A DNA stretch of 64,000 nt from an uncultured Acidobacteriota bacterium. Its GTDB lineage: Bacteria > Acidobacteriota > Thermoanaerobaculia > Multivoradales > UBA5704. The DNA is taken from NCBI GenBank assembly GCA_963732005.1, contig CAVSXT010000005.1, positions 2,057,315 through 2,121,314 on the forward strand, in the 5' to 3' direction. The notes beneath the pieces are model-generated. The model made no database searches. It worked only from the letters and a program-made list of their open reading frames with translations, and was not told the DNA's origin. Positions 45,545 through 62,455 of this stretch are shown here, piece after piece; the stretch's first letter is position 1; each line of letters starts with the position of its first letter. A program made the position numbers and the translations under genes.

Positions 45545-45732
45545 CGCAAATGCCGCAAGCAGACAGACCCAGCGAATGAGACTGGTCAGATCAGCCTCCT
45601 GTAAAACGACAGCCCGAGTCGCTGCGCGGAGCGGAAGGGGCGGAGATGTTTGGCGTCCACCGTTCTTCTCCTCTGACGTGCTTAGACGGCCGTGCCGGCG
45701 TTTTTTCGCGGGTGCGGCGCGCAGACCTCTGA

Positions 45733-47199
45733 CTACGGCTCCCTGACAACGAAAAAGAACGGGTCAATGGATGGCTGCACGGGGTAACCTGCGAGGTCCG
45801 TCAGGACATGCCGTTTCCAGTCGACGTTACGTAAATACCTGACCTTGACGTGCTTGGGGATCTTGGTGGGGTCAGGGTTGTTATAGGCGGAGAAGATGCC
45901 GTAGAAATCCTTCCCGACTGCGATCAGGTGGTCGTAATCGCCGAGCGTGTTGTTGCCTTGGCAGGAGCCTGGAACATCCTGCGTGTTCGCCAGCATTTCG
46001 TGGACGGCTGGCGCGGTAGCGAAGCGGTTGTCCGAGATCTCGATGTGGGTTTCCCAGTAGTGGCTACCAGGAGTGCCGGTAAGCTTCTGGTAGAGGAAGC
46101 CGACCTGCCCCAGGTTGTTGACCGCAAGCGCCGGATTGGTAGCAGCGACGACCTGCCGTAGATCATGACTCCATCGGGCACCGCCGTCATACGAGGAGCG
46201 GAGATGCAGAGTGAAGGTGTCAGCGGTGGTGCCGTCAGCCCAGGCGATGTATAAAATCTTGCTCTTGCCTCGCCGCGGATCGACGGCGAGCGCGAGGTTG
46301 CCGCGGACCCTCTGAGTGCCGAGATACAGGTTGGGGAGCGAGATAGCGACAGCGCAAGCCGCGCAGACGCCGGGGACACCTCCCGCGCTAATTGCCTGAT
46401 AGGGATTCGATGCAGCCCCCCAGGCGTCGTCTCTGACGACGATCACATCGGCGATCGCGGGAGGTATGCACGACCTCGGATGCAAGAAGGCCAGGTACAC
46501 AGTGCCGTTAGGATGAATCGCCGGACGAATGGAAGTGCCGTCCATGCACCCGAGGGTCCGGGCATCGAGAGATAGGGGGCCGACAAAGTTGTCCAGCGGC
46601 GGGGCTTTCGCCGCGTCGAGTGATTGCTCGACGGCCGCTGACCGGTAGTAAGGTGCATCGAGGTTGTTGTAACCTACGTAAACGCGGTCGACGCCAGGGT
46701 TCAGGGCGGTCGCCTCCTCGACGTCGGGCTGGTCGCCGTCTTGGATCTGGATGAGATCGGTCATCGCGCCAGGCGCCAGTAAGTTGACCTGGCGTAGCAG
46801 GTCGACCTTCTTGTTGTCGTTACGCAGGATGCCCGCGTAAAGAACGCCAGAGGTTTGGGAAAATCGCAAGGTGATGTCGCACATGGCGGACCCGCCCGGC
46901 AAGACGCCCGGCAAGACAACGTTGAGAAGCCAGGTCATGCCGCCGTCGGTCGAGACGAAGATCGGCGCCTCGCTCGATTCGAGAGGGTCGGGTGTTAGGG
47001 CAGATGCTGCCATCTGAAGAGGGTTTGCCGGGTTGACCGCGATGCTCGGCTCGGCGTCGCAGTTGGATTCTCCACTTAGAGACCGCGGGATGACGTCGAC
47101 CACCTGGATCGTCGGAAGATGAGCACAGTGCAGCCCGAGCAGACTCAGAAGGAGGAGCAACCAGTTCTGCGGTGCCGCGAGAGGCGAGGGCCTCGTCAT
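45733..47199 (-). CDS. Secreted BNR/Asp-box repeat protein (sialidase-fold-like)
   Basis: Signal peptide MTRPSPLAAPQNWLLLLLSLLGLHCAH and Asp-box motifs STDGGMTW and SYDGGARW. Confidence 0.65.
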   Translation of the reverse strand: MTRPSPLAAPQNWLLLLLSLLGLHCAHLPTIQVVDVIPRSLSGESNCDAEPSIAVNPANPLQMAASALTPDPLESSEAPIFVSTDGGMTWLLNVVLPGVLPGGSAMCDITLRFSQTSGVLYAGILRNDNKKVDLLRQVNLLAPGAMTDLIQIQDGDQPDVEEATALNPGVDRVYVGYNNLDAPYYRSAAVEQSLDAAKAPPLDNFVGPLSLDARTLGCMDGTSIRPAIHPNGTVYLAFLHPRSCIPPAIADVIVVRDDAWGAASNPYQAISAGGVPGVCAACAVAISLPNLYLGTQRVRGNLALAVDPRRGKSKILYIAWADGTTADTFTLHLRSSYDGGARWSHDLRQVVAATNPALAVNNLGQVGFLYQKLTGTPGSHYWETHIEISDNRFATAPAVHEMLANTQDVPGSCQGNNTLGDYDHLIAVGKDFYGIFSAYNNPDPTKIPKHVKVRYLRNVDWKRHVLTDLAGYPVQPSIDPFFFVVREP

Positions 47200-47250
47200 G
47201 ATGATCTCTCGTGTCACGAAAGTGCGTCGGGCAGAAGGCCGGCGTGTCGA

Positions 47251-48078
47251 TCAGTTGGTCTGAACCGCGATGATCGAGCGGATCTGCTCGAGCCGGTCCA
47301 GCGACAGGACATCGAGTTCGTCAAGGGCCGTCAGTCCGAGTAGGTGCAGCACCGGCATCCCTCTCTCCTTTTGGTCGCGCTGCAAGATCAGGATCTGCAC
47401 GGTTCCTGTGCGCAACTTGGGTGAGGCCCGCCACAGCAAGTCCGTGCTGTTGGGAAAGAGGACGTGCAAGGCGGACGGCGGCTCGCCCATAAGGACGGAG
47501 TGGACTTCGATCGTAGCCACCCACCAATCGGGGTCGTGCTCAGCGATGAGGGGCGGGGCGCCGTATGACGACGCGGGGCAGGTCGCCTTGACGGTACCTA
47601 CGACGATAAGCTGGGCGCGGGCGACGCGATCGCGGAGCTGGGCGGCGAACGCCCTGTTCTCGGCATCGCGGATCCGCGCTGGAAGGCTCGCGCCCTCCGT
47701 GGGGTTCATGTGGTATATCTCAACTACGGCCAAGGTGTCGCCGAAGAGCCAGCTGCGAGTCAAGAAGATCGCGGCATCTCCGATTTTGAGGAGCGAGTCG
47801 CCCTTGAGCCTCACGGTGACGCGTTTTCCTTTCAGGGAATAGTATGGCCCCGCCACTGGCCGATAAACTTGGTCTACTTGGATCACCGCTGTACGAGAGT
47901 CGACGGGGAAGGCCGGTTCGGTCGCAGTTCCAATTGCCTTCACGGTGCCTTGGAATATGAACTGCGACCGGCTCAGCAGCGCATCAAGACCTTGGGCGCC
48001 CGCGAGCGCGGAAAGAGAAAGAGCCAAGGTGCCGAGGAGCGAGAGCTGGCGTGCTGTTGAGCAGCGTGACACCGCCAT
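47251..48078 (-). CDS. Secreted hypothetical protein
   Basis: Internal ATG followed by the signal peptide MAVSRCSTARQLSLLGTLALSLSALAGAQG. No family recognised. Confidence 0.5.
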   Translation of the reverse strand: MAVSRCSTARQLSLLGTLALSLSALAGAQGLDALLSRSQFIFQGTVKAIGTATEPAFPVDSRTAVIQVDQVYRPVAGPYYSLKGKRVTVRLKGDSLLKIGDAAIFLTRSWLFGDTLAVVEIYHMNPTEGASLPARIRDAENRAFAAQLRDRVARAQLIVVGTVKATCPASSYGAPPLIAEHDPDWWVATIEVHSVLMGEPPSALHVLFPNSTDLLWRASPKLRTGTVQILILQRDQKERGMPVLHLLGLTALDELDVLSLDRLEQIRSIIAVQTN

Positions 48079-48398: not shown

Positions 48399-48782
48399 AT
48401 GCCCGACAGAACCAAGAAGACCCCAAGAGCGAACACCACTGTGAAGAGCGAAGAGCGGAACCTGTTTCGCGAATTGATGTCTGGCGTGAAGGCGATGCAG
48501 CAACACCGCGAAGGGCGACTCACCTTGCGGAGCCACCACGTCCTGCCGATCACGCTTCCTCCCTTGAATCCGCAGCTCGTGCGCGACACGCGTGAAGCGT
48601 TGCACATGTCACGACAGGTGTTTGCGTTGAAGCTGGGCGTGAAGCCCCGCACGCTCGAACGCTGGGAGCAAGGACGTAGCAAACCAAACGAGCAGGCGGC
48701 AGCACTGATCTGGTTGGTGCGGAAATATCCGGACACTCTCGAGCGTATCGAGTCCCTGAGTGTTGGTGAGAGCAAGGCCTGA
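48399..48782 (+). CDS. XRE-family HTH protein, COG2944/HigA-MqsA-like antitoxin-type regulator (no cognate toxin identified)
   Basis: TREALHMSRQVFALKLGVKPRTLERWEQGRSKPNEQAAALIWLVRKYPDTLERI is characteristic of this antitoxin family. The start is uncertain (no Shine-Dalgarno sequence at 48399). Confidence 0.6.
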   Translation: MPDRTKKTPRANTTVKSEERNLFRELMSGVKAMQQHREGRLTLRSHHVLPITLPPLNPQLVRDTREALHMSRQVFALKLGVKPRTLERWEQGRSKPNEQAAALIWLVRKYPDTLERIESLSVGESKA

Positions 48783-48820
48783 ATGAGTGAGGGTTGCGGG
48801 CATGAGCGCGGCCGTGGCCT

Positions 48821-49879
48821 CTACGCCAGGATCTGCTCGATGCAGGCTGCCGCGCCGGGCAGCTGCCGGTACTCGAGGCAGCGTGACCGCTGGCGCTCGC
48901 GCAGCTCTTCCAGGTCTTGACGCAACGCACCGAACGCTGCGGCGGCCGCCTCCGGGTTGGCGCACCGCAGGTGGCGAAACTCGAGGGGCACGGGGTCGGG
49001 CGGCAGGACCGCGCCAGCGGCGACACGCAGCAGATTTCCGGGGACCGGGCCGGGCCTGCCCGGGCGCGGCAGGGCGGCCGGATCCACCAGAGCGAGCGGG
49101 ACGCCCATGGCCGCCGCGCGAGCGGCCAGGACGGAGCGGCAGTTGGCGGTGATCAGGAGGTCGTGGCGCGCGACCTCGGCCTCGAGCTCGCCGTAGGGGA
49201 GGTCCTCTCGGATGACCCGCGCCTGGCGAAGAAACGGCAGGGAGGGGTCGAGCGGGCTCAGCACACTGAGCTCGACGTCGAGCTGGGAAAGACCTTGGAA
49301 GGCCAGGCGCTCGGCGGCCGGAAATTCCGGAAAGGCATGCATCCAGGGCGCGGCCGCCCACAGCCAGCGGTGGTGGCGCCGCGGGCGGCCCGCCCTCGCG
49401 CCGGCCGAGAACACGAGCTGTTCCGCACGGGGCGCCTCGCCGTAGGTGAAGGGCCGCGGCAGGATGACCGCGACGCCGGGCGGGAGCGGGCAGACGAAGG
49501 AATCGCCGCAAGGATCCAGCGCCGCGATGCGGACGCCGGCCGCCTGCCAGAGCGCCAGCAGCGCCTGGGTCAGCTGGGGGAAGATCGGCACCTGGAAGAA
49601 GGCGCGAAAGCTCGCCAGCACGATGAGGTCGGGAGCACGATCCATCGGGCGCACCTCGACGTCGAGGCCGCTCTGCCCGCGCTGCTTTTCGAGCAGGGCA
49701 AACCCGCGCAGGCGGCGCAGCAGACCGTCGACCCGGGGATGCGGGTCCCAGGCGCGGAGCAGCTCCGCATAACGGATCCGAAAACGTTCCCTGGACAAGC
49801 CCCGCGCCAGCCGGATGAGCGCCGTCAGCTCGCCGATGCTCCCCGCCATGAGGTGAGTGCTGGTCGAGGGGAAGACCAT
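48821..49879 (-). CDS. Putative GT-B fold glycosyltransferase (MurG/GT28/MGT-like)
   Basis: Two-lobe pattern: an N-terminal domain (MVFPSTSTHLMAGSIGELTALIRLARGL) and a C-terminal nucleotide-sugar lobe (DLLITANCRSVLAARAAAMGVPLALV). Weak assignment. Confidence 0.45.
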   Translation of the reverse strand: MVFPSTSTHLMAGSIGELTALIRLARGLSRERFRIRYAELLRAWDPHPRVDGLLRRLRGFALLEKQRGQSGLDVEVRPMDRAPDLIVLASFRAFFQVPIFPQLTQALLALWQAAGVRIAALDPCGDSFVCPLPPGVAVILPRPFTYGEAPRAEQLVFSAGARAGRPRRHHRWLWAAAPWMHAFPEFPAAERLAFQGLSQLDVELSVLSPLDPSLPFLRQARVIREDLPYGELEAEVARHDLLITANCRSVLAARAAAMGVPLALVDPAALPRPGRPGPVPGNLLRVAAGAVLPPDPVPLEFRHLRCANPEAAAAAFGALRQDLEELRERQRSRCLEYRQLPGAAACIEQILA

Positions 49880-49907
49880 GAGCACCCACGGACGGCGTCG
49901 CCGGCCC

Positions 49908-50729
49908 TCAGGAGATCGTCGTGACATGCGGTTGGAGCAGACCTGCGATCGTCCCCTCGAGCGCCAGCAGCGGCGGCCGGCCCGCCTCGCGATGCCGCCG
50001 CCGCGCCTCGACCAGCGAGGCCAGCAGCGCATCCTCGGCGGTGTTGAGATTGAGATGGATCTCGCGAAACTCGAGGGCCTCGGCCCGCGCCCCGCGAGCG
50101 AGCAGCCACGACAGCAGATCGCCGAGATGCGGGTGGCGCCGCACCAGGTCGGGCGGCACGCCGTCGAGCAGCCCGGCGCCGAATCCCACGCAACCGCACC
50201 AGCGGGTGCTGCCGGCCAGCTGGCCGGCGGCCGGCTTCTCGCGCACGCTCAGCACGCGGCCGGCAGCGTCGGTCACCACGTTGCACAGGATCCTGTGCGA
50301 CTCCGAGTCGCGCACGACGCCCACCAGCAGATCGGGCGCCGCCGCCCGCCCGGCCAGCGCGCGGAACGGCGACGAGTCTTCGTAGTACTCGTCGCCGAGG
50401 AGCACGAGCGCCGCATCTCCTGCCAGCCACGGCGCCAGCGACAGCAGGCCCAGGATCGGACCGAGGGGCTCGGCTTCGGCCACGCAGGAGATGGTCACTC
50501 CCGTCGGCGGCGTGTAGAGGGCGAGCGCCGAGCGCACGCTGCCGGCGAAGGTCGCCGAGGTCGCAACCAGGATCTCGGCGACGCCCGCCTCGGCACACTG
50601 CTCGATCTGGCGCATCAGGAGCGGCTGGTCGAAGACCGGCAGCAGGCACTTGGGCAGCACCTGGCCCAGGGTGCCGAGGCGGGAGCCCCTGCCCCCGGCC
50701 AGGATGACCGCCCGCGGATACGGGACCAT
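49908..50729 (-). CDS. Sugar-1-phosphate nucleotidylyltransferase (NTP_transferase, RmlA/GlmU-like)
   Basis: RAVILAGGRGSRLGTLGQVLPKCLLPV signature. ATG at the complement of 50727-50729 (the TTG called in the track lies 9 nt upstream). Confidence 0.8.
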   Translation of the reverse strand: MVPYPRAVILAGGRGSRLGTLGQVLPKCLLPVFDQPLLMRQIEQCAEAGVAEILVATSATFAGSVRSALALYTPPTGVTISCVAEAEPLGPILGLLSLAPWLAGDAALVLLGDEYYEDSSPFRALAGRAAAPDLLVGVVRDSESHRILCNVVTDAAGRVLSVREKPAAGQLAGSTRWCGCVGFGAGLLDGVPPDLVRRHPHLGDLLSWLLARGARAEALEFREIHLNLNTAEDALLASLVEARRRHREAGRPPLLALEGTIAGLLQPHVTTIS

Positions 50730-50843
50730 GGGCGCCAACGGTAGCCGCTGCTCGCTCCCGCCGCAAGTCCGGGGAAATGCTAAGGTGCCGGCGTACGCGG
50801 CGATTTCGCGGCGATCCTGCCGCTACCCGCGACGCAATGTTCC

Positions 50844-51773
50844 ATGAGGTCGACGCATGGAGGACGGCGAGCTGGTCGAGGTCGCTGCCGAAGGGCGCCC
50901 GGCTCGCCTGCCCGGCGAGGACCACAGCGGCCATGGCAGCCTGGTCAGCCCGGCTATTTCGCCGCGCTGAAGATCCCGCTGCTCGCCGGCCGGACCTTCA
51001 GCGAGCGCGACGACCGCAAGAGCCTGCCGGTGACCATCCTTGGCCGTTTCGCGGCGGCCCGCCTCTGGCCGGGACAGAATGCGGTCGGCCGGCGCGTCAC
51101 CTTCGGCCGGATCCCGAGCCGGCCGGACGCGCCATGGTGGACGGTGATTGGAGTGGTGGGCGACGTGCGCGACACCGACCTCGCCGTCGCGCCGGAGATG
51201 GAGGTCTACATCCCGCAGCTGCAGCTTCCGGTCGGGACCTCGACGCTGGTCGTGCGCGCCGCGGGCGACCCGCGGAGACTGGTCGGACCGATCCGCCGCG
51301 CCATCCGGAGGCTCGACGCGGACCTGCCGCTCGACAAGGTGCAGACCCTGGCGCGGGTCGTCTCGTCGGCGCTCGCCGGCCGGCGCGTCAGGACCTGCCT
51401 GCTGGGCATCCTTGCCGCCCTGGCGCTGGTGCTGGCGGTCGTCGGGGTCTACGCGCTGGTCAGCGGCTCGGTCGGCGAGCGGGTGCACGAGATCGGCATC
51501 CGCATGGCCCTGGGCGCCAGGGGCGACGAGGTGGTGCGAATGATCGTTCGGCAGGGGATGCGGCTGGTCGCCGCCGGCCTGCTGCTCGGGCTGGCGGGTG
51601 CCTATGCTTTCAGCCGGCTGCTGGCAGGCCAGGTCTACGAGGTCGCGGTCGCGGACCCGTGGACCTACCTCGGCGCGGCGGGGTTTCTCGCGGCCTTTGC
51701 CTTGCTCGCCAACTGGCTGCCGGCGCGGCGGGCGAGCCGCGTCGATGCGCTCGAGGCAATGCGCTGCGAGTGA
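50844..51773 (+). pseudogene. Truncated FtsX/MacB-type ABC permease: only the C-terminal roughly 270 aa; the N-terminal TM helix and most of the periplasmic domain are missing
   Basis: The protein-like sequence starts abruptly at ...PGYFAALKIPLLAGRTFSERDD and continues through the FtsX 3-TM bundle (VHEIGIRMALGARGDEVVRMIV...). The first 37 codons of the ORF are Arg/Gly junk. There is no upstream partner. Confidence 0.55.
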
Positions 51774-51785
51774 AGACAAGCAGCG

Positions 51786-51830
51786 CCGGCCCGCCCTCGA
51801 TCCCGGAGGCGGGAGCGGGAGCGGGCCGGC
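51786..51830. terminator. GC-rich hairpin (GCCGGCCCGC ... GCGGGCCGGC) between convergent transcription units; a possible bidirectional terminator
   Basis: 10-bp perfect inverted repeat read directly. No clear U-tract, so the call is tentative. Confidence 0.3.
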
Positions 51831-51905
51831 GGTCTGCCGTTGCAATGGGCCGTTGCCGCGTCTGCAGGCGGTTCCTTCAACGAAGCCGCTGCGGTACGGT
51901 GCGGG

Positions 51906-52052
51906 TCAGGGCTTGCAGGGTTCGGTGTGCCCCGAGGGCGTGAGGTTGCAGGAGCCCCCGGCGATCTCCGCCAGATCCAGGTCTCTCGCCGGGGTGATCA
52001 GATTCAGCACGGTCTCTTTCGACAGGACCAACTGCTTCTTCCTTTTCTTCAC
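51906..52052 (-). CDS. Small ORF (48 aa) resembling a RiPP/bacteriocin precursor peptide: Lys-rich N-terminus, double-glycine-type leader (DLDLAEIAGG) and a Cys/Ser/Thr/Pro-rich 15-aa core (SCNLTPSGHTEPCKP)
   Basis: Hand translation of the minus strand: GTG(52052) AAG AAA AGG ... TGA(51906-51908) gives MKKRKKQLVLSKETVLNLITPARDLDLAEIAGGSCNLTPSGHTEPCKP. AAAGGGG Shine-Dalgarno sequence 5 nt upstream. An AT-rich promoter-like stretch (TTCAAC...TATAGCATAAG) lies immediately upstream. Not in the ORF track (below 60 aa). Confidence 0.55.
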   Translation of the reverse strand: MKKRKKQLVLSKETVLNLITPARDLDLAEIAGGSCNLTPSGHTEPCKP

Positions 52053-52114
52053 GTTCGCCCCTTTCTTATGCTATACGACTGTTGAACTAGCCTCTTATAC
52101 ATCGTTTCCATGGT

Positions 52115-53482
52115 TCAGGACAAGGGGATCGGCAAGGTGGAGATCAGTAGCGCCCGATCCCAGGCCGGATCGACGTGAGAGACAGCCGCGAGGAGAGCCA
52201 GTCCGATGCCCGTGGCGCCCCTGGCGAACCCGGGCTCGTCCAACCACTCGCCACGATAGGTGATGCGAAAGCCGGCAATGCCGACGCCAGGCGTGCGCTG
52301 GGCGAGCGCCCGGTCGAGCCAGCGGCGCGCGGCCTCGGCGAAGGCCGTCTCGCCGGTCGCCTGATAGAGCCGGTTGAAGACGTGGCCGATACCGGCCGGC
52401 CCGTCGGAGAGCCCGGCGCCGGCGCCGCCGGCCATGCCGGGATGGCCGGGATGGCGGGCGGCCGCGGCGAGCGCCACGCGCCGGCCGGCGGCTTCCCAGG
52501 CCGGCTCGCCGGCGCCACGCGCCGCCAGCAGCAGGCTGGCGGCGATGCCGAGATCCCCGACCCGCCAGGCGAGTGGGCTACCCCGCGCCGCGGCGCCGGG
52601 GAAGTGGAACTGAGGAAAGCGGTAGCCGCTCTCGGGAGGCTGCTCGCGCGCCAGCAACCAGGAGACCGTGGCCGCGAGCAGCGGCCGCGCCGCGGGGGCG
52701 GCGACACCGGCCTGACAGGCGGCACCCAGCAGCGCGATGACGCCCGCGATCCCCTGGCCCATGCCGAGGACATAGGCGCCCTGCGGGAGCTCGCCGCGGA
52801 ATGGAGGAGGCAGGTCGCCCACCGGGCTGAAGAAGGCGGCACCTTCCGGATGGCGCTCGGCGCGGCGCGCCAGCTGGGTGACCACCGCCTCCAAGCATTG
52901 CGCCGCGTTAGGCCGCGGCAGCCGCTCGAGCGCGTAGACGCCCAGCCCCACCAGGCCGGTGAAGAGGTCGTAAGCGCCCTCCCAGGACGAGCGCGAAAGG
53001 CCACGCAGGAGGACCTCGTCCACCTCGCGGTTGCCGTCCTCCTCGTCCGCGAACAGTCGCCCAGCCAGGTGGGCCGCGGCCCAGGCGATCCCCGGAAATC
53101 CGAGGTACAGGCTGGTGCCCAGGCGCAGGCCGGCGGCGGCCTCGGTGGCCTGGTCGAGCAGGTCGATGGCGACGTCGGCATGGGCATCGCCGGCGCCGTG
53201 AAGCGCAAGGTAGGCATGGAGGAGGCACTGCCCCACGCGGCCGCTGCTCAGCGCGTTCTCCCAGATCGGAACGCCCTCGGGCCGGAGGTTGCGGGGAAAG
53301 CAGCTGACGCCGCGGGCGGTGACGGCGGCGATGTCGCCGGCCGCCGCCAGCGCTCGGGTCGCGGCCTCGCCGGCCAGGAGGGGGCTCCAGGGGAGGCTCA
53401 CGCCCGGATCATGTGGGACCCGGCGGAGCGGGTCAATCGTCGCCGCCAGCGCCCTGCTCTCCCCGCGACGGGGGCGGGGCAC
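52115..53482 (-). CDS. LanC-like (lanthionine synthetase C-like, alpha/alpha-toroid with GxxG repeats) protein lacking the canonical Zn-ligand Cys/His motifs
   Basis: Repeated GxxG-containing helices (SLYLGFPGIAWAAAHL, DLFTGLVGLGVYALE, GMGQGIAGVIALLGAA, LSDGPAGIGHVFNRLYQATGE). Where LanC has SWCHG and GLCHG, this protein has GMGQG and LSDGPAG. Start uncertain: GTG at 53482 chosen; the ATG at 53638 would overlap the divergent gene by 110 nt. Confidence 0.55.
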   Translation of the reverse strand: MPRPRRGESRALAATIDPLRRVPHDPGVSLPWSPLLAGEAATRALAAAGDIAAVTARGVSCFPRNLRPEGVPIWENALSSGRVGQCLLHAYLALHGAGDAHADVAIDLLDQATEAAAGLRLGTSLYLGFPGIAWAAAHLAGRLFADEEDGNREVDEVLLRGLSRSSWEGAYDLFTGLVGLGVYALERLPRPNAAQCLEAVVTQLARRAERHPEGAAFFSPVGDLPPPFRGELPQGAYVLGMGQGIAGVIALLGAACQAGVAAPAARPLLAATVSWLLAREQPPESGYRFPQFHFPGAAARGSPLAWRVGDLGIAASLLLAARGAGEPAWEAAGRRVALAAAARHPGHPGMAGGAGAGLSDGPAGIGHVFNRLYQATGETAFAEAARRWLDRALAQRTPGVGIAGFRITYRGEWLDEPGFARGATGIGLALLAAVSHVDPAWDRALLISTLPIPLS

Positions 53483-53527
53483 TCGGGGCAGCAAGTAGAC
53501 TAGAAGCTCCGACTGCGAGGCCAGACC

Positions 53528-54595
53528 ATGGATGAGAAACGGCTGGATTGGAGCACTTCGTACGTGGTTCCCGCGAGCCTTCGCTTCCGGCTGACGCCTG
53601 CCGGAAAGCTCCGCGCGGATGCCGAGTGGGCTCCCCATGTGATGACCGAGCAGGCCGAGGTGGCAGCCGATCAGGTCGAGCTGCTGCTCGGTTTCGCGAG
53701 CCCCCTGGTGGCCGAGGCGGCGTTCGCGCGCGCGGCGGAGACCTGGGACCTCGACCGCGAGACCTACGGCCTGCTGCTCGAGACCTGGATCGCCCGCGGC
53801 CTGCTGCGGCCGGTCGACGCCGGCGCCTACGCGACCACGCGCCTGGCGCTGTTCGCCGAGGCGGTCGCGGAAAAGGCCGCGACTGCATCTCCGGTCTTCC
53901 CGCTGCGCTCGCACTTCGCCATGCAGCAGCCGGTGCTGTTCGTGCCCGGGCTGGGCACCCGCGAGATCCACGACGGCCGGCGCTTTCCCTGGGTCGCCGT
54001 CCTCGAGACCGCCTTCCCGCTCATCCAGGCCGAATTCATCGCGCTTCTCGCCAGCTCCGACTTCTTGCGGGTCAACCCCGACTTCACCCATCAGGGAGAA
54101 TGGGCGGCGGCCTACCTCTGGGCTCACGGCGAGAGAATCGACGCGATCTGCCGCCAGTGTCCGGAAACCACCCGCCTGTTGACCTCGATCCCCGGAGTCT
54201 CGCAATTCGGCCTGGCGATGTTCTCGGCCCTCGCCCCGCACACCCGGATCGCGCCGCACCATGGCGTCACCAACGCGATCCTGCGCTGCCAGCTGCCGCT
54301 AAGGGTGCCGCCCGGCTGCAAGCTGAAGGTCGGAGATCACGAGCTCGAGCAGCAGGAAGGGCGCTGCATCGTCTTCGACGACTCCTTCCTGCATTCGGCC
54401 TGGAACGATAGCGACCAGGCGCGCTTCGTCCTGCTGTTCGACTTCTTCCACCCCGACCTGACCGGCGACGAGATCGAGTATCTGGCGCGGCTGCCGGCGA
54501 AGCAGGCCATGGCCAAGCACCACCTCGCCCAGGCGGTCGGTGGCCCGAAGGCGGAGTGGGCGAAGCAAGGGCCCGCCGGCGGCCCTGCCGGGTGA
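53528..54595 (+). CDS. Aspartyl/asparaginyl beta-hydroxylase family (Fe(II)/2-oxoglutarate oxygenase) protein with a roughly 150-aa N-terminal extension
   Basis: C-terminal KLKVGDHELEQQEGRCIVFDDSFLHSAWNDSDQARFVLLFDFFHP matches Asp/Asn beta-hydroxylase (LpxO/AspH). The N-terminal 150 aa are of unknown function. Confidence 0.75.
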   Translation: MDEKRLDWSTSYVVPASLRFRLTPAGKLRADAEWAPHVMTEQAEVAADQVELLLGFASPLVAEAAFARAAETWDLDRETYGLLLETWIARGLLRPVDAGAYATTRLALFAEAVAEKAATASPVFPLRSHFAMQQPVLFVPGLGTREIHDGRRFPWVAVLETAFPLIQAEFIALLASSDFLRVNPDFTHQGEWAAAYLWAHGERIDAICRQCPETTRLLTSIPGVSQFGLAMFSALAPHTRIAPHHGVTNAILRCQLPLRVPPGCKLKVGDHELEQQEGRCIVFDDSFLHSAWNDSDQARFVLLFDFFHPDLTGDEIEYLARLPAKQAMAKHHLAQAVGGPKAEWAKQGPAGGPAG

Positions 54596-54695
54596 CGGCG
54601 CCCTGAGCAGACCTGAGCAGCCGTCGTCCGGTGCCGCGGCCCCTCCTGCGGCCGCTTCGCCGGACATCTCCTGCAACGGAACGGGACAGGAAGCA

Positions 54696-56282
54696 ATGGA
54701 CAAAGCCACGAACAGATGGATTGCGCGCTCGGCCCTGCCCGCCGTCGTGGCGGCGCCAACCCGAGAGGCCGGCGGGGGGTGGCCGAGGGCCACCGCGGCG
54801 CGGCCGTGGGTCTGGGGGGCCATTGCCTGCTGGGCCGCCGTGGTCGGCTTTCTCGGCTGGCGCTTTCGGGGCCAGGCGCTCGACGACTTCTTCATCACCT
54901 ATCGCTATAGCCTGAACCTCGCCGAAGGACGGGGCTTCGTGTTCAACGCCGGCGAGCGGGTGTTCGCGCTCACCAACCCGGGGCTGGCGCTGGTGCTGGC
55001 CCTGGGCCGGACGCTGACCGGTCTGGAAGTGCCGCTGCTGGCTTCGGCGCTCTCGGGCCTGGCGCTGCTGGCGGTGGCGGTCCTACTGCTGCTCGAGGCG
55101 CGGGCGCTGGGACGGGCGCCGGAAGCGCTGCTCGGCGGCACGCTGCTGGTGACCTCCTCCTTCCTCTGGGTGCTGCAGGGCGGCGAGGGGATGGTGATGC
55201 TCGCCCTGCTGCTGCTGGCCGCGCGGTGGGGAGCCGACCGGCCGGTCCTGGCCGGCCTGCTGGCGGGTTTTGCCGTCTGGTGCCGCCCGGAGGCCGCGAT
55301 CGGCGCCGGCCTGCTGGCGATCCTCTTGTGGCGGGAGCGCAAGCGGTTGCCGTGGCGCCTGGCTGCCACCGCGGCTGCCGTCGTCCTGCTCGGCGTGCTG
55401 CTCGCCTGGCTCTATTTCGGCAACGCCATCCCGAACTCCCTGGCCGCGAAGCGCGCCCTGGCGGCGGGCAGCTCGGGGCTGGGCTTCTGGCCGCAGTCGG
55501 CGGAGCTGGCACGGCGTCATGCGGGGCAACTATGGCCGGCGGTCGTCGGGCTCGGACTGCTGGGGCAGTGGCCCCTGCTGCGCTCCGGGGGCCGCTGCCT
55601 GCGGCTGCTCTCCCTGCTGGCGCTGAGCCTCACGGTGATCTATCCGCTCCTCGGCGTGCCCTATGCGCCGTGGTACGTGCTGCCGATGGCCGTGGCGATG
55701 CTGTACGGGCTCGGTTTCCTGATCGGGTTGCCGGCGCGGCTGAAGGCCACGGCCACCCCGCTTGCCGGCCGGGCGCTCGCCACGGCCGCCGCCGCGCTGG
55801 CCCTCGCGGCGGTGGTGATCTCGCTGGCGCCGGCCGAGGCCCGGCGGCTGCGCCGGTTCACCTGGCCGCCCTACATGCGGGCCTACCAGCGGGCGGCGGA
55901 GTGGCTGAACGCCAACACGGCGCCGGCTGCGGCGGTGTCGTATTTCGAGGTCGGGGCGCTCGGCTATTTCAGCGATCGGACGGTGATCGACATGGTCGGC
56001 ATTGTGACGCCCGAGCTCTTGCCTTACGTGCGGCGTCGCGATTTCGCCGGCGCCTTCCTGGCCCGTCCCGGTGCCTTCGCTCTCGTGGATCCGGACCAGG
56101 GTCCCTTCATGCCGGCCGATAGGCCCTGGTTCAAACGCGCCTACCAGCCCGTGGCCACGTTCGGCGAGCAGGGGAGGCTGGTCCTGTATGAGCGCCGCGT
56201 CGACGTCGGCCTGCCGCGGGCACCGTCGCCCGGCGGCGATCCGGACGCGGGCGGCGGCAGCGGCAGCAACGCAACGCGCTGA
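54696..56282 (+). CDS. GT-C fold membrane glycosyltransferase-like protein (ArnT/PMT-superfamily-like), paralog A
   Basis: About 11 TM helices with a first-loop motif DDFFITYRYSLNL. ATG at 54696. The 3' end overlaps convergent paralog B by about 142 nt. Confidence 0.55.
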   Translation: MDKATNRWIARSALPAVVAAPTREAGGGWPRATAARPWVWGAIACWAAVVGFLGWRFRGQALDDFFITYRYSLNLAEGRGFVFNAGERVFALTNPGLALVLALGRTLTGLEVPLLASALSGLALLAVAVLLLLEARALGRAPEALLGGTLLVTSSFLWVLQGGEGMVMLALLLLAARWGADRPVLAGLLAGFAVWCRPEAAIGAGLLAILLWRERKRLPWRLAATAAAVVLLGVLLAWLYFGNAIPNSLAAKRALAAGSSGLGFWPQSAELARRHAGQLWPAVVGLGLLGQWPLLRSGGRCLRLLSLLALSLTVIYPLLGVPYAPWYVLPMAVAMLYGLGFLIGLPARLKATATPLAGRALATAAAALALAAVVISLAPAEARRLRRFTWPPYMRAYQRAAEWLNANTAPAAAVSYFEVGALGYFSDRTVIDMVGIVTPELLPYVRRRDFAGAFLARPGAFALVDPDQGPFMPADRPWFKRAYQPVATFGEQGRLVLYERRVDVGLPRAPSPGGDPDAGGGSGSNATR

Positions 56283-58048
56283 GGCACGCGCTGCCGCGCG
56301 CTCAGCGGTCGCCGGACCGTGGAAGCGGCAGGCCGCAGCCAGTCACGGCTCTCGCAGGCGCGGATCCGGTCGTCGGTGAGCGGTACCGGGCGCTCGATCA
56401 CCCGCACCTGCTTGCCGCCGCGCAGGTGGACGTTGGGCAGGAAGCATTCCACGTAGCCGGGCGGCGGCTGCCGTTCGTGCGCCATCAGGACGCGCCCGCC
56501 GGCCGCCAGCGGCGCGCGCGCGATCACCCGATCGTTGAGGCCCAGGGTGTCCACCACGGCGACGTGCGGCAGGACCCAGCCGGCGAGGCCGACGCCGCTC
56601 GTCGCCATCACCGGCCGGCCGCTCCAGGAGATGCGGGCGCCGTCCTGCCGCGACGGAAACCGCTCGGTCAGCCAGATCAGGCAGACCGCGTGCTCCTGCC
56701 GGCGCAGGCCGATGGCGTGGCCGATCAGCGTCGCCTGCCAGCCATCCCAGGCCGCGACGATGGGCCGCACCGGCGGCGGGAAGTCCCCGGCCAGCGGCCA
56801 GCGCAGGAAGGAGGTCTGCTCGCGGCTCAGGAGATCCCTGGTGCGCCACCAGTACAGCCATGGCAGCGGCCAGGAGGCGAGCAGGAAGACGCTCAGCGTC
56901 GCGACGGCGGCGGCGCCACCGAGACCGGCGGCGTCGACCAGCGCCAGCGCCGAGAGCAAGAGCAACGGGATCAGGTAGCTAAAGACGCGGTACTCGAAGT
57001 GATCGCCGCCGACGATGAGTGTGTAGTAGGCGACGTGGGTCACCACCACCGCCGGCGCGAGCACTCTCGCCAGCCGCGCCGCCACGGGCCGGGTGCTCGG
57101 GACGCGCCGCGGCGAGAGCAGGCCGCGGCAAGCCGCCGCCACGGCCAGCGCCAGCCAGACCCAGGTGCCGTTCTCGACCACGAAGCTGGCGAGGTAGCGC
57201 CAGCCCATCTCGGGCCACGGCGCCGGCACCTTGGCGTAATAGGTGTTTGGCAGCCAGGAGCCGTAGGTCCAGCGGCGCCACAGCAGGTGAGCGGCGATGG
57301 CCAGCAGCGGGCTCGCCGCGAGGACCGTCGCGCGCACCGGCCTGGCGTGCGACGGGGCGGCGGCGAGCAGGAGCAGCGCCGTGGCCGGCACCGTCAACAG
57401 TCCATCCGGCCGCGCCAGGCAGGAGAGCGCGGCGGCGGTCGACAGCCGCAGGCCCCAGGCCAGGCCGGCCTCGTCGCCGCCCACGAGTCCGAGGGCTTCG
57501 AGCAGCCACCAGGTGAAGCAGAGGTTCCAGAGCTGGGTCTCGAGCCCGGAGCTCAACCAGGTCAGGAAGGTGGTGTTGGTGCAGATACCCAGCAGGACGA
57601 GGGCCGCCAGCAGGGTCCGCCGCCGGTCCAGCCGGGGTGAGAGCCGCAGGCGTCCGCCGGCGCGCCAGACGAGCGCCAGCGTCGCGAGCCCGCAGAGCAG
57701 GCTCAGCCAGCAGGAGGTGCGCGGCGGATCGATCCCCGTCAACCGCCAGGCGGCGCCGAGCAGCAGCGCCCACAGGAGGCTGGTGTAGCCCTCGACCGGC
57801 AGGAACGGCGGCGGGTTCCAGATCAGGCCGTATCCCGCCAGCAGGTTGGAGACATAGCGGAACGTGATGTAGGCGTCGTCGGTCTGGAACCAGAGCAGCT
57901 TCCAGCCGGCGACGGCGACCAGCAGCGCCGCGCCGAGCACCCAGTAGCGCGCGGCTCCGGGGGCCGGCCCGCGACGCCGGCCCGGCAGGTCCCCTGGCGA
58001 GCTCGCTTGCTCCGGTTCCAGGGTTGCCGCCGTCGGGGTCGGGCTCAT
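56141..58048 (-). CDS. GT-C fold membrane glycosyltransferase-like protein, paralog B, translationally coupled to cydB
   Basis: First-loop motif TDDAYITFRYVSNL. Polytopic. Its ATG (complement of 58046-58048) overlaps the cydB stop (ATGA). Confidence 0.6.
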   Translation of the reverse strand: MSPTPTAATLEPEQASSPGDLPGRRRGPAPGAARYWVLGAALLVAVAGWKLLWFQTDDAYITFRYVSNLLAGYGLIWNPPPFLPVEGYTSLLWALLLGAAWRLTGIDPPRTSCWLSLLCGLATLALVWRAGGRLRLSPRLDRRRTLLAALVLLGICTNTTFLTWLSSGLETQLWNLCFTWWLLEALGLVGGDEAGLAWGLRLSTAAALSCLARPDGLLTVPATALLLLAAAPSHARPVRATVLAASPLLAIAAHLLWRRWTYGSWLPNTYYAKVPAPWPEMGWRYLASFVVENGTWVWLALAVAAACRGLLSPRRVPSTRPVAARLARVLAPAVVVTHVAYYTLIVGGDHFEYRVFSYLIPLLLLSALALVDAAGLGGAAAVATLSVFLLASWPLPWLYWWRTRDLLSREQTSFLRWPLAGDFPPPVRPIVAAWDGWQATLIGHAIGLRRQEHAVCLIWLTERFPSRQDGARISWSGRPVMATSGVGLAGWVLPHVAVVDTLGLNDRVIARAPLAAGGRVLMAHERQPPPGYVECFLPNVHLRGGKQVRVIERPVPLTDDRIRACESRDWLRPAASTVRRPLSARQRVPQRVALLPLPPPASGSPPGDGARGRPTSTRRSYRTSLPCSPNVATGW

Positions 58049-59121
58049 CGCCGGGGGCTACTCGCGGCGCGGCGCCGGGAGCCAGGGAGCCGCTCCGGCA
58101 GGCGACCGAAGATGCGATAGAGGTAGAAGAACGCCGGCAGCAGCGCCATGGCGCCGGCGGCCAGCGCGCCGAGCAGGAAGCGCAGGGTCGCGGTGGGCGC
58201 GGCGGCGCCGGCAAGCGTGAGGTCGGGGGGGACCAGGAACGGGTACTGCGCGACGGCCCAGCCGGCGACGATGAGGCTGGCCTGTGCGGCGGCGGCGGCG
58301 CGGGCGAGGCGGTAGCGGCGGCGTGCCAGGGCCGTCAGGGCGGTGACGGCACAGGCGCCGGTTGCCGCGTGCAGGGCCCAGGACCAGGGCGTGCGGGTCA
58401 GCTCGTGCAGCAGGCCGGGGGCCTGCCACCAGGCAGTGGCCAGCACGCCGGCGGCGAGCGGCGCGAGCAGCACGCCGGCGGCCAGGGCGCGCCGGCGGAA
58501 ATCGTCGCTCAGCTCGGCCGCGTCGCCCGGATCCTCGCTGCCGTCCGCAGCGTGGCGAGCGTCGTGCGCCAGATAGACGGCGGCGAGAAAGGCGAACAGC
58601 ACCAGGGTGAAGGCGCCGACGGCGAAGGGGAAGGGGCCGATCCAGGCGGTCAGGTAGTCGGTGGCCGCGGCCGGTGGGCGGAGCCTGCCGGTGGCGATGG
58701 CGCCGACGACGATGCCGAGGAGCAGAGGCGTCGCCAGGCTCGCGGCGGCGAAGAGCCGTCCCCACGATCCGGCGGCGGCCTCGCCCGCGGGGTCGCCGTA
58801 GGAGCGGAAGCTGAACGCGGCGCCGCGGGCGACGATGCCGAGCAGCATGAGCAGCAATGGCACATGCAGGACGGTGGCGAGGCGCGCGAACGCCGGCGGG
58901 AAGGCGGTGAAGAGGACGACGATGGCGAGGATCAACCAGATGTGGTTGGCCTCCCAGATCGGGCCGATGGAGTGGGCGATCAGCCGGCGCTGGCGCGCCG
59001 CCCGCGGCCCGCGCGCCAGCAGGTCCCAGACGCCGCCGCCAAAATCGGCGCCGCCGCTCAGGGCATAGGCGATCAGGGAGATGGCGATCGCGAGGCCGGC
59101 CAGGTCCTCAAGCGCCGGCAT
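58045..59121 (-). CDS. cydB: Cytochrome bd ubiquinol oxidase subunit II
   Basis: ADFGGGVWDL and IGPIWEANHIWLI signatures. Confidence 0.85.
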   Translation of the reverse strand: MPALEDLAGLAIAISLIAYALSGGADFGGGVWDLLARGPRAARQRRLIAHSIGPIWEANHIWLILAIVVLFTAFPPAFARLATVLHVPLLLMLLGIVARGAAFSFRSYGDPAGEAAAGSWGRLFAAASLATPLLLGIVVGAIATGRLRPPAAATDYLTAWIGPFPFAVGAFTLVLFAFLAAVYLAHDARHAADGSEDPGDAAELSDDFRRRALAAGVLLAPLAAGVLATAWWQAPGLLHELTRTPWSWALHAATGACAVTALTALARRRYRLARAAAAAQASLIVAGWAVAQYPFLVPPDLTLAGAAAPTATLRFLLGALAAGAMALLPAFFYLYRIFGRLPERLPGSRRRAASSPRR

Positions 59122-60475
59122 CGCCGGCCTCCCGCCGGTTGGCGCCGTTGCCGGGTAAGCCGAGGTCGGTGCCGCTGGCGGCGCTCATCGTCGACAGCAC
59201 GTGGCGGCGCAGCAGGTGGACGACGATGCCGCCGAGCAGCACGTAGACGACAGTGATGACGGCGAAAGGCGCCGTGAGCCCCGGCATCGGCGTCACCGCG
59301 TCGGCGGTGCGCATCACGCCCTGGATGATCCAGGGCTGCCGGCCCAGCTCGGTGACCGACCAGCCGCTCTCGACGGCGATGACGCCGAGGGGCGCGGCGC
59401 CCACCAGGCAGCGCAGCAGCCAGCGGCGATCGGGTACGCCGCGCCTTCGCCATGCCGTCACGCCCGCCAGCGCCGCCGCCGCGGCCAGCAGGGTGCCGCA
59501 GGCGGCCATGATCTGGAAGGCGGTGTGGACCAGTACGACGTTGGGCCGATCGGCCGGCGGCACCGACTCGAGGCCGGCGACGACGGCATGCCGGTCGTGA
59601 TAGGCGAGCAGCGACAACCCGGCGGGTATCTCGATCGCGCCGCGGGTGGTGCCGGTCGCGGGATCCGGCATGCCGCCGATGCGCAGCGGCGCGCCGGCCT
59701 CGGTTCGCCACTGTCCTTCCATGGCGGCGAGCTTCATCGGCTGGTAGACCCCCAGCATCTGACCCAGCAGGTCGCCCGAGAGCGGCTCGAGCACCGCCGC
59801 CGGACCGCCCACCATCAGGGCGATGCCGAGAGCGGCGCGATGGAAGCGGTCGCCGGGGCGGCGCAGCAGCGCGGCGGCATGGATGCCCGCCACCGCGAAG
59901 CCCACCGCCGCGTAGGCCGCGAGCACCATGTGCAGGGCCTGCGGACCGGCCGCCGGATTGAGCATCGCAGCCAGCGGGTGGAGATGAGTCAGCCGGCCGC
60001 CGGCGAGCTCGAATCCCGCCGGCGTGTTCATCCAGGCGTTGGCGCTGACCACGAACACCGCGGAGAGGGTGCCGGCGACGGCCACCACGACGCCCGCCGC
60101 GAGATGAGCGCGCGGCGACACCCGGTTCCAGCCATAGAGATAGATGCCGAGGAAGATGGCTTCGGCGAAGAAGGCAAAACCCTCGAGCGAGAAGGGCATG
60201 CCGATGACCGCCCCGGCGGCCTGCATGAAGCGCGGCCAGAGCAGTCCGAGCTCGAAGGAGAGCACGGTGCCGGACACCGCGCCGACCGCGAACAGGATGG
60301 CCGTGCCGCGCGCCCAGCGGCGGGTGAGGTCCAGGTAGACGGGATCGCCGGTCCGGCGCCACCACGTCTCGGACGCCACCATCAGAACCGGCATCGCCAT
60401 GCCGGCGATGGCGAAGAGGATGTGAAACATCAGCGACACCGCCATCTGGCTGCGTGCCGCCAGCAGGTCCGACAT
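59108..60475 (-). CDS. cydA: Cytochrome bd ubiquinol oxidase subunit I (short Q-loop / CioA-like length)
   Basis: MFHILFAIAGMAMP...GWNRVSPRAHL...GRQPWIIQGVMRTADA. The 3' end overlaps the cydB start. Confidence 0.85.
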   Translation of the reverse strand: MSDLLAARSQMAVSLMFHILFAIAGMAMPVLMVASETWWRRTGDPVYLDLTRRWARGTAILFAVGAVSGTVLSFELGLLWPRFMQAAGAVIGMPFSLEGFAFFAEAIFLGIYLYGWNRVSPRAHLAAGVVVAVAGTLSAVFVVSANAWMNTPAGFELAGGRLTHLHPLAAMLNPAAGPQALHMVLAAYAAVGFAVAGIHAAALLRRPGDRFHRAALGIALMVGGPAAVLEPLSGDLLGQMLGVYQPMKLAAMEGQWRTEAGAPLRIGGMPDPATGTTRGAIEIPAGLSLLAYHDRHAVVAGLESVPPADRPNVVLVHTAFQIMAACGTLLAAAAALAGVTAWRRRGVPDRRWLLRCLVGAAPLGVIAVESGWSVTELGRQPWIIQGVMRTADAVTPMPGLTAPFAVITVVYVLLGGIVVHLLRRHVLSTMSAASGTDLGLPGNGANRREAGDAGA

Positions 60476-60511
60476 GCGCACAGCCTAGCAAATCGCCGGC
60501 TGCCCGCCAGG

Positions 60512-62455
60512 CTACCCGCAGGGCAGTGCCGAGGTGTCCTGCAGCGGCGGCGCAGCGGTGCCGATCGGGTTGGTGTAGGTCCGCTGGCGGCCGGTCTGGG
60601 TGTCGGTGACCGTCACCGTGAAGCCGACGTTGGTGGCCGCGGCATAAAAGATCCAGAAGCTGTGATTGACCGCGCAGCCGTCCAGCACCTTGATCAACAT
60701 CTCCGGGTTGTCGGCGGCGAAGAACCAGAAGAGCCCGCCCTGGGCGACGCCCAGACTCTGCAGGGGGATCGCCTGGGCGTCTCCCGAATCGCCGCCGCCG
60801 AGGTGGAAGCGCACCGCGACCTGGAAGCGGCCGTCGATGCACACCGCGGTGCCGGTGGATGCGCAGGTGCTCTGGGGCGCCGCGCCGGCGGCAACCCCGG
60901 CGGTGCCGGCAGTGCCCGGCGCCATCATCGGCGAGGGTTCGGCGGGCCAGCTCGCGGTCCAGAACGGCTCGCCGGCGGTGCCGGCGCCAAGGGCGCCGGC
61001 GGCGGCGTCCGGCGTCGGCGGCGGGTCGGCGGGCCAGCTCGCGGTCCAGGTGGGCTCCGGAGCGTCGAGCGCGAGGCCGCCGCCGGGTGGCGGCTCGACC
61101 GGGCCTGACGCCTCGCCCCTGGGGGAAGCATCGCCGTCGATGCAGGCGAAGGCGGAGGTGTCCTCGATCGGCGCGGCGGCGACGCCGTCGCGGTTGGTGT
61201 AGGGCTTGGCGCGGCCGGTGCGGGTGTCGAGCACCGTCACCGTGAAGCCGACGTTGGTGGCGGCGGAGGCAAAGACCCAGAACTCCTGGTTGAGGGGGCA
61301 GCCGTCGAGCACCTTGACCAGCAGCTCGGGGTTGTCGGCGGTGAAGAACCAGAACAGACCGCCGCGCGCGACCCCCAGGCCGGCCAGCGGGATCGCCTGA
61401 CCGTTGCCCGACTTGCCGCCGCTCTGGGCAGTGGCGAACGCCGCGGTGATCTGCCAGCGCCGGTCGCCCGGCTGGTCGTCGAGGCAGAGGGTGGCGCCGG
61501 CGGGCGTGCACTGGAAGGTGGCGCGGCCGATCCGCGCGACGGCGGTCTCGGCGAACCAGAGGTTGCCGTCGGGGCCGGCGGCGATCCCTTGCGGGCCGGC
61601 GTTGGCGGTGGGCACCGCCACCTCGGCGACGACGCCGGCGGTGGAGATGCTGCTGATCTTGTCGGTCTCGGGTTCGGTGAACCAGAGCTTGCCGTCGGGG
61701 CCGGTGGCGATGCCGTAGCCCGGACCGATGCTGGGGAGCTCGGTCACCGTGCCGCTGGTGGCGATCCTGCCGATCCGCTTCGCCAGGCGCTCGGTGAACC
61801 AGAGCGCGCCGTCGGGGCCGACGGTGATGACGAACGGCTGGCTGCTTGCCGTCGGCACCGGATACTCGGTGATCACGCCCTTGGGGGTGATGCGTCCGAT
61901 CTTGTTGGCGGCCGCCGCCGATTCGGTGAACCAGAGCGCGCCGTCCGGCCCGGTGGCGATGAAGGCAGGATCGGTCCCGGCCGGCAGCGTGTATTCCGTG
62001 AACACTCCGCCGGTCGAGATGCGGCCGATCTTGCTGGTGGCGAGCTCGGTGAACCAGAGCGCCCCGTCGGGACCCGCGGCGATGCCCTGCGGTCTGGCGC
62101 CCGGGGTGGGGATGGAGTACTCCGAGAGCGCGCCGGCGGTGGTGATCCTGCCGATCTGGCTGGCCGTGAGCTCGGTGAACCAGAGGGCGCCGTCGGGACC
62201 CGCGGCGATGCCGACGGGTGCGCTGTGGGGAGTCGGGATGGGGAACTCGGTGATGGTCCCGCCGATGGTGATGCGCCCGATCTGGTTGGCGCCTTCCTCG
62301 GTGAACCAGACCGCGCCGTCGGCGCCGGCGACGATCCCGGTGGGGCCGCCGTTGGCCGACGGCAGGACGTATTCGCCGATCGCGACGGCGCGCGCCGCCC
62401 CGCGCAGCCCGACGAAGAGCACGATTGTCAAAGCGAGGCGGCGAGCGGTGCGCAT
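60512..62455 (-). CDS. Secreted Vgb-like (streptogramin-lyase-fold) beta-propeller protein with two tandem copies of an unidentified roughly 110-aa C-terminal domain
   Basis: ATG (complement of 62453-62455) with AGGAGG upstream. Signal peptide MRTARRLALTIVLFVGLRGAARA. Six or more repeats of GPDGxLWFTE...IGRI. Duplicated C-terminal segments containing GGLFWFF.ADNPE.L.KVLDGC...FW.F.AA.TNVGFTVTV.DT.TG. Confidence 0.7.
   Translation of the reverse strand: MRTARRLALTIVLFVGLRGAARAVAIGEYVLPSANGGPTGIVAGADGAVWFTEEGANQIGRITIGGTITEFPIPTPHSAPVGIAAGPDGALWFTELTASQIGRITTAGALSEYSIPTPGARPQGIAAGPDGALWFTELATSKIGRISTGGVFTEYTLPAGTDPAFIATGPDGALWFTESAAAANKIGRITPKGVITEYPVPTASSQPFVITVGPDGALWFTERLAKRIGRIATSGTVTELPSIGPGYGIATGPDGKLWFTEPETDKISSISTAGVVAEVAVPTANAGPQGIAAGPDGNLWFAETAVARIGRATFQCTPAGATLCLDDQPGDRRWQITAAFATAQSGGKSGNGQAIPLAGLGVARGGLFWFFTADNPELLVKVLDGCPLNQEFWVFASAATNVGFTVTVLDTRTGRAKPYTNRDGVAAAPIEDTSAFACIDGDASPRGEASGPVEPPPGGGLALDAPEPTWTASWPADPPPTPDAAAGALGAGTAGEPFWTASWPAEPSPMMAPGTAGTAGVAAGAAPQSTCASTGTAVCIDGRFQVAVRFHLGGGDSGDAQAIPLQSLGVAQGGLFWFFAADNPEMLIKVLDGCAVNHSFWIFYAAATNVGFTVTVTDTQTGRQRTYTNPIGTAAPPLQDTSALPCG

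Follow-up and report, generated by a model that had tools for sequence, protein, structure and literature searches.

Why would two membrane proteins that look like lipid-linked-sugar glycosyltransferases converge tail to tail, one abutting a cytochrome bd oxidase operon and the other a lanthipeptide-like locus? The question is raised by a 64,000-nucleotide stretch of an uncultured Acidobacteriota genome (contig CAVSXT010000005.1; hereafter the window), in which the initial annotation had singled out two such genes, here called A (+ strand) and B (− strand). The reading that we favour, with a probability of roughly 0.8, is that A and B are GT-C(A) enzymes resembling the mycobacterial arabinofuranosyltransferase AftB, that their juxtaposition with cydAB belongs to one clade, that the overlap of their 3′ ends is a by-product, and that the adjoining LanC/AspH genes form an unrelated accessory cassette.

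The window has a G+C content of about 72% and long spurious open reading frames (ORFs) are common in it; real genes were told apart by homology and by the G+C content of the codon positions, the signature of a real gene here being about 0.9 at the third position (GC3) and about 0.5–0.6 at the second (GC2). By this measure both A and B are coding through their conserved parts. For comparison we used their closest relatives, which are contigs of a Thermoanaerobaculia (Acidobacteriota) metagenome-assembled genome and of three further metagenome assemblies, and with which the window is collinear from 54740 to ~63900 at ~94% identity. Gene A (54696..56282, +) encodes 528 residues from ATG 54696, within an ORF that itself opens at GTG 54540, or 511 residues if it starts at GTG 54747, the position matching the relative's start. 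The full ORF of B runs on the − strand from 58048 to 56141 (635 residues), of which 56302..58048 is the conserved part (about 577 residues and the ancestral stop), and 56141..56314 an unconserved C-terminal extension of 58 codons (RPLSARQRVPQ...NVATGW). After the first predicted transmembrane helix, A carries the motif DDFFITYRY (D63/D64) and B the motif TDDAYITFRY (D57/D58). The two ORFs, their motifs, the 142-nucleotide overlap and the ATGA junction with cydB are all present as the initial annotation had described them.

The families of A and B were identified with profiles and structure models. Pfam gave no real match for A, B or 30 members of each family, and the PMT, PMT_2, ArnT-type and MIR models had no match at E ≤ 0.1–1 in A, B and these 60 family members; a precomputed PF13231 (PMT_2) annotation is carried by one distant B homolog (P0109). 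Since single-sequence phmmer searches against the PDB sequences also returned no meaningful match for either protein, family profiles were needed. The B-family profile detects the cryo-electron microscopy structure of Mycobacterium chubuense AftB (PDB 9dlf) with E 5.5e-14 over profile positions 20–342 and in an additional weak C-terminal stretch, and the A-family profile detects it with E 3.8e-4. The AlphaFold (AF2) models are of high confidence, with a mean predicted local distance difference test (pLDDT) score of 90.2 for B and 88.1 for A. In Foldseek searches with B, AftB ranks top (E 4.3e-10, template modelling score (TM score) 0.60, 609 columns, covering both the membrane and the periplasmic domains), followed by AglB, ALG3 and ArnT, and the PMT matches are partial (TM score ~0.27). 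With A, many GT-C(A) enzymes score about equally and AftB is joint-best. The models resemble solved GT-C(A) members in transmembrane helix 1 (TM1), the two juxtamembrane helices and TM2–7. A and B have the GT-C(A) fold, and in each the acidic catalytic motif sits in the first loop on the periplasmic side. The earlier assignment to GT-C enzymes, which would use lipid-linked sugars, is borne out by family profiles, predicted structures and motif conservation; the placement among ArnT/PMT enzymes is not, as no Pfam model of that type matches and the nearest solved relative is AftB.

The active site, as read from alignments, supports the same assignment. In AftB, D62 of the DD motif is catalytic and T91, E172, R221, T274 and R372 contact a donor analog (PMC12041299). 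In the profile alignment these six residues pair with D58, T89, E170, R213, T269 and R354 of B, so that B keeps the whole catalytic and donor-contact set of AftB; among 30 sequences of the B family five of the six are invariant and T89 is nearly so. The DD pair, which aligns with D61/D62 of AftB, is invariant in the 30-sequence alignments of both families. A retains D64, T93, R197 and S248 of the AftB set, and the motifs that it has in common with AftB are T93, R197/P198 and P246...K252.

Neither protein should be called AftB itself. On the NCBIfam equivalog model for AftB (NF041481, cutoff 1050 bits), A scores 20 bits over residues 38–137 and B has no match; because the cutoff is not reached, the two are best described as homologs, not orthologs, of AftB. 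The initial annotation had called A and B paralogs, which holds in the superfamily sense (the two family profiles align in hhalign with a probability of 98.3%, E 1.2e-14) and fails for close paralogs: the only significant BLASTP match between the two proteins covers 103 N-terminal residues, at 38% identity. A recent duplication was rejected, the similarity being confined to the N-terminal ~100 residues. To judge from these comparisons, the families of A and B are distinct and parted long ago within one superfamily.

The B family is large, with more than 864 clusters at 90% identity among the matches listed, many of them labelled 'arabinofuranosyltransferase' by JGI; relatives of B are present in 471 species-representative genomes, and its profile collects 23,380 cluster representatives (50% identity) at E ≤ 1e-3 and 1,687 at E ≤ 1e-30. 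The A family is smaller (144 matches), and all of its organism-named members are Thermoanaerobaculia. Both proteins are members of experimentally uncharacterised families of the known GT-C(A) type, that of B having no Pfam or NCBIfam model.

From these data we infer that the most likely role of both enzymes is to attach a sugar from a polyprenyl-phosphate donor to an envelope glycan. With the N-terminus in the cytoplasm, the juxtamembrane helix after TM1 would present the DD motif on the periplasmic face, where the second aspartate (D58 in B, D64 in A) may act on the anomeric carbon of a polyprenyl-monophosphate-linked sugar. The phosphate would be held by conserved arginines (R213 and R354 in B, R197 in A), and the C-terminal periplasmic domain would bind the acceptor, an envelope glycan in the periplasm to which the sugar is moved. 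Because B retains every AftB donor-contact residue, its probable donor is a pentofuranose, or some similar monosaccharide, linked to a lipid; the donor of A is less constrained.

The most conspicuous feature of the locus was the convergent overlap (56141..56282, 142 nucleotides), in which the last 47 codons of A lie against the tail of B. It had been presented as a long antisense overlap of two real-looking ORFs, and here the comparison with relatives gives a different picture. In the relatives, B has 575 residues and ends ...TVRDR-TGA, 35 nucleotides away from A's stop codon. The window carries an additional base within a CCGG (56312..56315, located by pairwise DNA alignments with the relatives' loci L001 and L084), four codons ahead of the ancestral TGA, which survives as TCA on the + strand at 56302–56304. 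Where L001 has ...ACG GTC CGC GAC CGC TGA, the window has ...ACG GTC CGG CGA CCG CTG AGC..., and B reads on as ...TVRRPLSARQ... for 58 further codons. This tail is found in 0 of 11 aligned homologs, all of which stop within ~13 residues of a conserved DW. The coding signature is lost over the last ~58 codons of B, with GC2 going from ~0.5–0.6 up to 0.7–0.87 and G+C at the first codon position falling.

The length of the tail is explained by the frame into which it falls. From the coordinates, it occupies the antisense frame of A in which the third codon positions coincide, and in the window stops occur in such frames at 1.9% per codon; because of this low rate, the chance of a 58-codon stop-free run is P ~0.33. 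A +1 indel ahead of the TGA of B would therefore let translation continue in the stop-poor shadow frame of A and yield a 58-residue junk tail. The 142-nucleotide overlap is no more than expected by chance once the normal stop has been bypassed.

That the two transcripts would both traverse the shared 142 nucleotides, within which no terminator-like site was found, could be taken to mean that the overlap has been selected as a means of coupling the expression of A and B, through antisense action or transcriptional interference. This is extremely unlikely, as the 94% relatives have a 35-nucleotide spacer in its place, the local fold energy is like that of shuffled sequences (z = −0.75), and comparable accidental 3′ overlaps with unrelated neighbours occur elsewhere (131 and 65 nucleotides). 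Neither scans for terminators and promoters nor RNA folding set the overlap apart from shuffled controls. In the two other cases, a member of the A family overlaps a MacB permease gene by 131 nucleotides (L086 11526–11656) and a member of the B family overlaps a gene for a PQQ protein by 65 nucleotides (L004 11793–11857), both convergently. This suggests that in GC-rich genomes antisense frames poor in stops give rise to overlaps of this kind quite generally, as a by-product.

Whether the extra base is a mutation or an error is harder to decide. One of the two overlapping 3′ ends, that of B, is a frame artefact in the evolutionary sense, and an assembly or sequencing error is a serious rival account of it, if somewhat the weaker one. 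In that case B would end at the TGA 56304–56302, 19 nucleotides from the stop of A, and there would be no overlap. An error would fit the absence of a coding signature in the tail, the shorter form in four independent assemblies of the 94% clade, the ancestral stop shared by all homologs, and an exact-sequence look-up that found no database entry for the 635-residue product. It fits less well with the rest of the alignment: the 9.2 kb aligned with L084 show 15 indels, of which the other 14 keep the reading frame or fall at gene junctions, so over this collinear coding DNA the assembly is not prone to indels. An error-riddled assembly was rejected as an explanation, the extra base being the sole frame-breaking indel. 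Moreover, the site is not a long homopolymer, and the A/B junction holds two further, real-looking indels (14 and 2 nucleotides). On balance we lean towards a real mutation in a fast-evolving spacer as the plausible origin of the extra base. Indels cluster at both gene junctions of B; at the one with cydB, the cydB C-terminus and the spacer are unalignable (window 58050–58080 against L001 2990–3040).

Upstream of B lies a tandem pair with both Pfam domains expected of a cytochrome bd operon. The gene for subunit I, cydA (59108..60481, −; Cyt_bd_oxida_I, E 4.8e-140), has its likely start at ATG 60475, giving 455 residues, the same length as the relative's gene, and is followed by cydB for subunit II (58045..59121, −; 358 residues; Cyt_bd_oxida_II, E 8.9e-66). 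At the junction with B the sequence is ATGA, the start ATG of B sharing bases with the TGA stop of cydB, and a terminator scan found no terminator-like site there. Since B abuts cydB and leaves no room for a terminator, co-transcription of cydAB and B is likely, in line with the transcription unit that had been proposed; the partnership itself is not conserved. For the synteny survey we used the best 79 species-level B loci, with flanks of up to 10 kb, from Myxococcota, Acidobacteriota, Planctomycetota, Gemmatimonadota, Chloroflexota and other phyla. When searched by tblastn with the CydA and CydB of the window, only 1 of the 79 loci, that of the 94% relative, had these genes beside B.

B homologs at 65–82% identity are found in other contexts. 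Those at 82% and 81% sit in the order ApbE -> B <- PQQ-repeat beta-propeller (L004 10001–13658; L093 244–5240), a 73% copy lies between a divergent PQQ-propeller gene and a CLC channel gene (L087 4047–7931), and a 65% homolog adjoins NfeD/Band_7. This 73% copy is also present in the genome assembly of the 94% relative (L019). In the four assemblies of the 94% clade A and B are neighbours, 35 nucleotides apart; around the A homologs at 77, 72, 54 and 52% identity, B and cydAB are both absent. A cydA-cydB-B operon with a true function, in which expression of the oxygen-scavenging cytochrome bd would be matched by a GT-C-catalysed modification of the envelope or of the oxidase's surroundings, could draw on the ATGA overlap, the missing terminator-like site and the gene order kept across the 94% clade. 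The survey makes it improbable, and the junction itself speaks against it: the cydB of the relative ends 5 codons earlier and is followed by a 34-nucleotide unalignable gap with its own Shine-Dalgarno-like GGAGGA before B. The cydA-cydB-B<-A block therefore looks, from gene order, like a recent arrangement limited to one clade and not like a functional module.

To find partners by guilt-by-association, we clustered six-frame ORFs from the 79 B-family loci, which told little about function. The recurrent clusters were shadow ORFs, extra GT-C paralogs and generic ATP-binding cassette (ABC), kinase and short-chain dehydrogenase/reductase (SDR) genes, and about 20 of the 79 loci carry a second AftB-like paralog within 10 kb. 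The PQQ-propeller protein is a possible conserved partner of B in Thermoanaerobaculia-like contigs. A sulfatase/alkaline-phosphatase-superfamily protein is encoded within 10 kb in 12 of the 79 loci (e.g. L045 7759–9888 and L039 16463–17899), and a sulfatase-superfamily gene is also divergent from an A-family homolog (L090 5250–7691). Upstream of cydA in the window, a gene for a Vgb_lyase/NHL-type beta-propeller (61500–62360) has internal DNA repeats of ~68–70% identity, seen as multiple off-diagonal matches in blastn against the relative.

On the other side of A, an AspH-like gene (53528–54595, +) and a LanC-like gene (52115–~53500, −) lie directly upstream, as had been noted, and the initial annotation had suggested a link between the glycosyltransferases and the peptide encoded there. 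In blastn of the window against the relatives' contigs L001, L002, L084 and L085, homology ends at 54740, 44 nucleotides into ORF A, and resumes at 48807, just to the right of a gene for an MqsA-like helix-turn-helix (HTH) protein. To the right of 54740 lies the conserved backbone A-B-cydB-cydA-Vgb_lyase-Phi_1; to the left, 48808–54739 is a variable cassette of 5.9 kb, in the place of which the relatives hold ZnuABC and three Band_7 genes. The ATG 54696 of A, with AGGAAG before it, lies in cassette-derived sequence. A repeat search found no flanking repeats around the cassette that would mark a mobile element.

Besides the AspH-like and LanC-like genes, the cassette contains a gene for a protein of 403 residues with no Pfam match (48821–50032, −), a gene with a Pfam NTP_transferase match (49908–50738, −) and one for a truncated MacB/FtsX permease (50844–51773, +; Pfam). 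The last of these matches positions 94–192 of the 207-position periplasmic core model and FtsX, looks N-terminally truncated and could be what remains of a gene within the cassette. Next to the LanC-like gene, on its downstream side, is an ORF of 48 residues (51906–52052, −), made up of MKKRKKQLVLSKETVLNLITPARDLDLAEIAGG followed by SCNLTPSGHTEPCKP, which from its GG-type leader end and its Cys/Ser/Thr-containing core looks like a lanthipeptide-type precursor.

It could be that the acceptor of A, of B or of both is a protein, either this lanthipeptide-like product with the core SCNLTPSGHTEPCKP or some other, which they would O-glycosylate as PMT or TfpW does. A follows the AspH-like gene at a distance of 100–150 nucleotides, both being on the + strand, and the GT-C(A) protein glycosyltransferases STT3, PglB and PMT are among its fold matches. 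We regard this as very unlikely, as the relatives keep A, B and cydAB without the LanC/AspH cassette, the A homologs at 77–52% identity are not beside genes for ribosomally synthesized and post-translationally modified peptides, and B, whose PMT fold matches are the partial ones given above, has like A no PMT, PMT_2 or MIR match. A dedicated role of A and B in modifying the cassette peptide is unlikely because both belong to the conserved backbone and are present where the cassette is missing.

Farther to the left, window positions 40000–48000 have a lower G+C content (0.62–0.67, against 0.70–0.77 over most of the window) and encode a CHAT-domain protein of 1010 residues (42512–45544, −) and several ORFs with no Pfam match. 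The MqsA-like HTH gene (48399–48782, +) follows this stretch, which may be horizontally acquired or defence-related.

Several observations weigh against the assignment of A and B to AftB-like enzymes of envelope decoration in an incidental arrangement. In the profile and family alignments A has no recognisable equivalents of AftB E172 and R372, and its model scores about equally against ALG12, Pmt4 and ArnT, so that 'AftB-like' is a weaker description for A. Among the Pfam-scanned ORFs of the window there is no polyprenyl-phosphoribose synthase, DprE1/E2, GtrB-like GT2 or flippase, and no donor-synthesis gene recurs in the 10-kb flanks of the 79 B loci; for this reason the donor stays a guess. 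Both families are experimentally uncharacterised in every member, and our literature search turned up no paper that deals with AftB-like or GT89 enzymes of Myxococcota or Acidobacteriota. Finally, the cydAB-B-A block is kept at 94% identity in several assemblies, which makes a lineage-specific functional link possible.

Taken together, the cydAB partnership, the antisense overlap and the lanthipeptide link each have a mundane explanation, and the locus is a fairly ordinary one. For annotation, the lesson is that one indel close to a stop codon can be enough, in a GC-rich genome, to produce an extended convergent overlap that looks 'real', since stops are nearly absent from the antisense frame whose third codon positions coincide. 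The wider interest lies in a large AftB-like family that keeps the donor site of AftB in bacteria not known to make arabinogalactan. We tentatively raise the possibility that, through the B family, AftB-type furanosyl decoration of envelope glycans is widespread well beyond Actinobacteria, which depends on its members really using polyprenyl-phospho-pentofuranose donors. If so, this decoration would often be carried out by several clustered GT-C paralogs, as with A and B.

AftB, the mycobacterial terminal beta-(1->2)-arabinofuranosyltransferase (CAZy GT89, PDB 9dlf/9dlh), is the best solved match for B and a joint-best one for A. It shares with both the GT-C(A) fold, the module TM1, juxtamembrane helices 1 and 2 (JM1, JM2) and TM2, and the DD motif at the tip of JM1, and with B also the six catalytic and donor residues and the C-terminal periplasmic motif VG..GW....V.IID..GLND. 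The differences are the sequence identity of only ~20%, with scores far under the NF041481 cutoff, the lack of the GGDxxxxR element in A, and the lack of decaprenyl-phospho-arabinose pathway genes among the Pfam-scanned ORFs nearby. The diderm acidobacterial host is not known to make arabinogalactan or lipoarabinomannan (LAM). ArnT, PglB/STT3 and PMT have in common with A and B the seven-helix core and the acidic catalytic residue of the first loop; in the comparison with B their fold scores are lower than that of AftB and they stand lower in the fold lists, A and B have no Pfam match to the PMT, PMT_2 or ArnT-type models, and the acceptors of these enzymes differ, being lipid A or protein. 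The putative glycosyltransferases LA_3751/LA_3752 of Leptospira (NCBIfam NF047440) show a weak similarity, with 16.6 bits for A and matches in 4 of 30 B-family members (best E 6.9e-5), well under the 200-bit cutoff of a family that is itself uncharacterised.

A further comparison is offered by the three-component systems that add pentofuranose side chains in Gram-negative bacteria (Kelly et al. 2024, as outlined in PMC11194591). According to that outline, they consist of a polyprenyl-phosphoribose synthase, a MATE flippase and a periplasmic GT-C enzyme, which puts a single sugar from a polyprenyl-monophosphate donor on a finished envelope glycan. The likeness of A and B to these systems is one of description, drawn from that outline and not from the sequence of the Citrobacter GT-C enzyme, and the synthase and flippase, as described there, are neither among the scanned ORFs of the window nor recurrent in the 79 loci. 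By analogy, such a three-component pentofuranose system would be the best-fitting working model for an AftB-like enzyme in a diderm bacterium.

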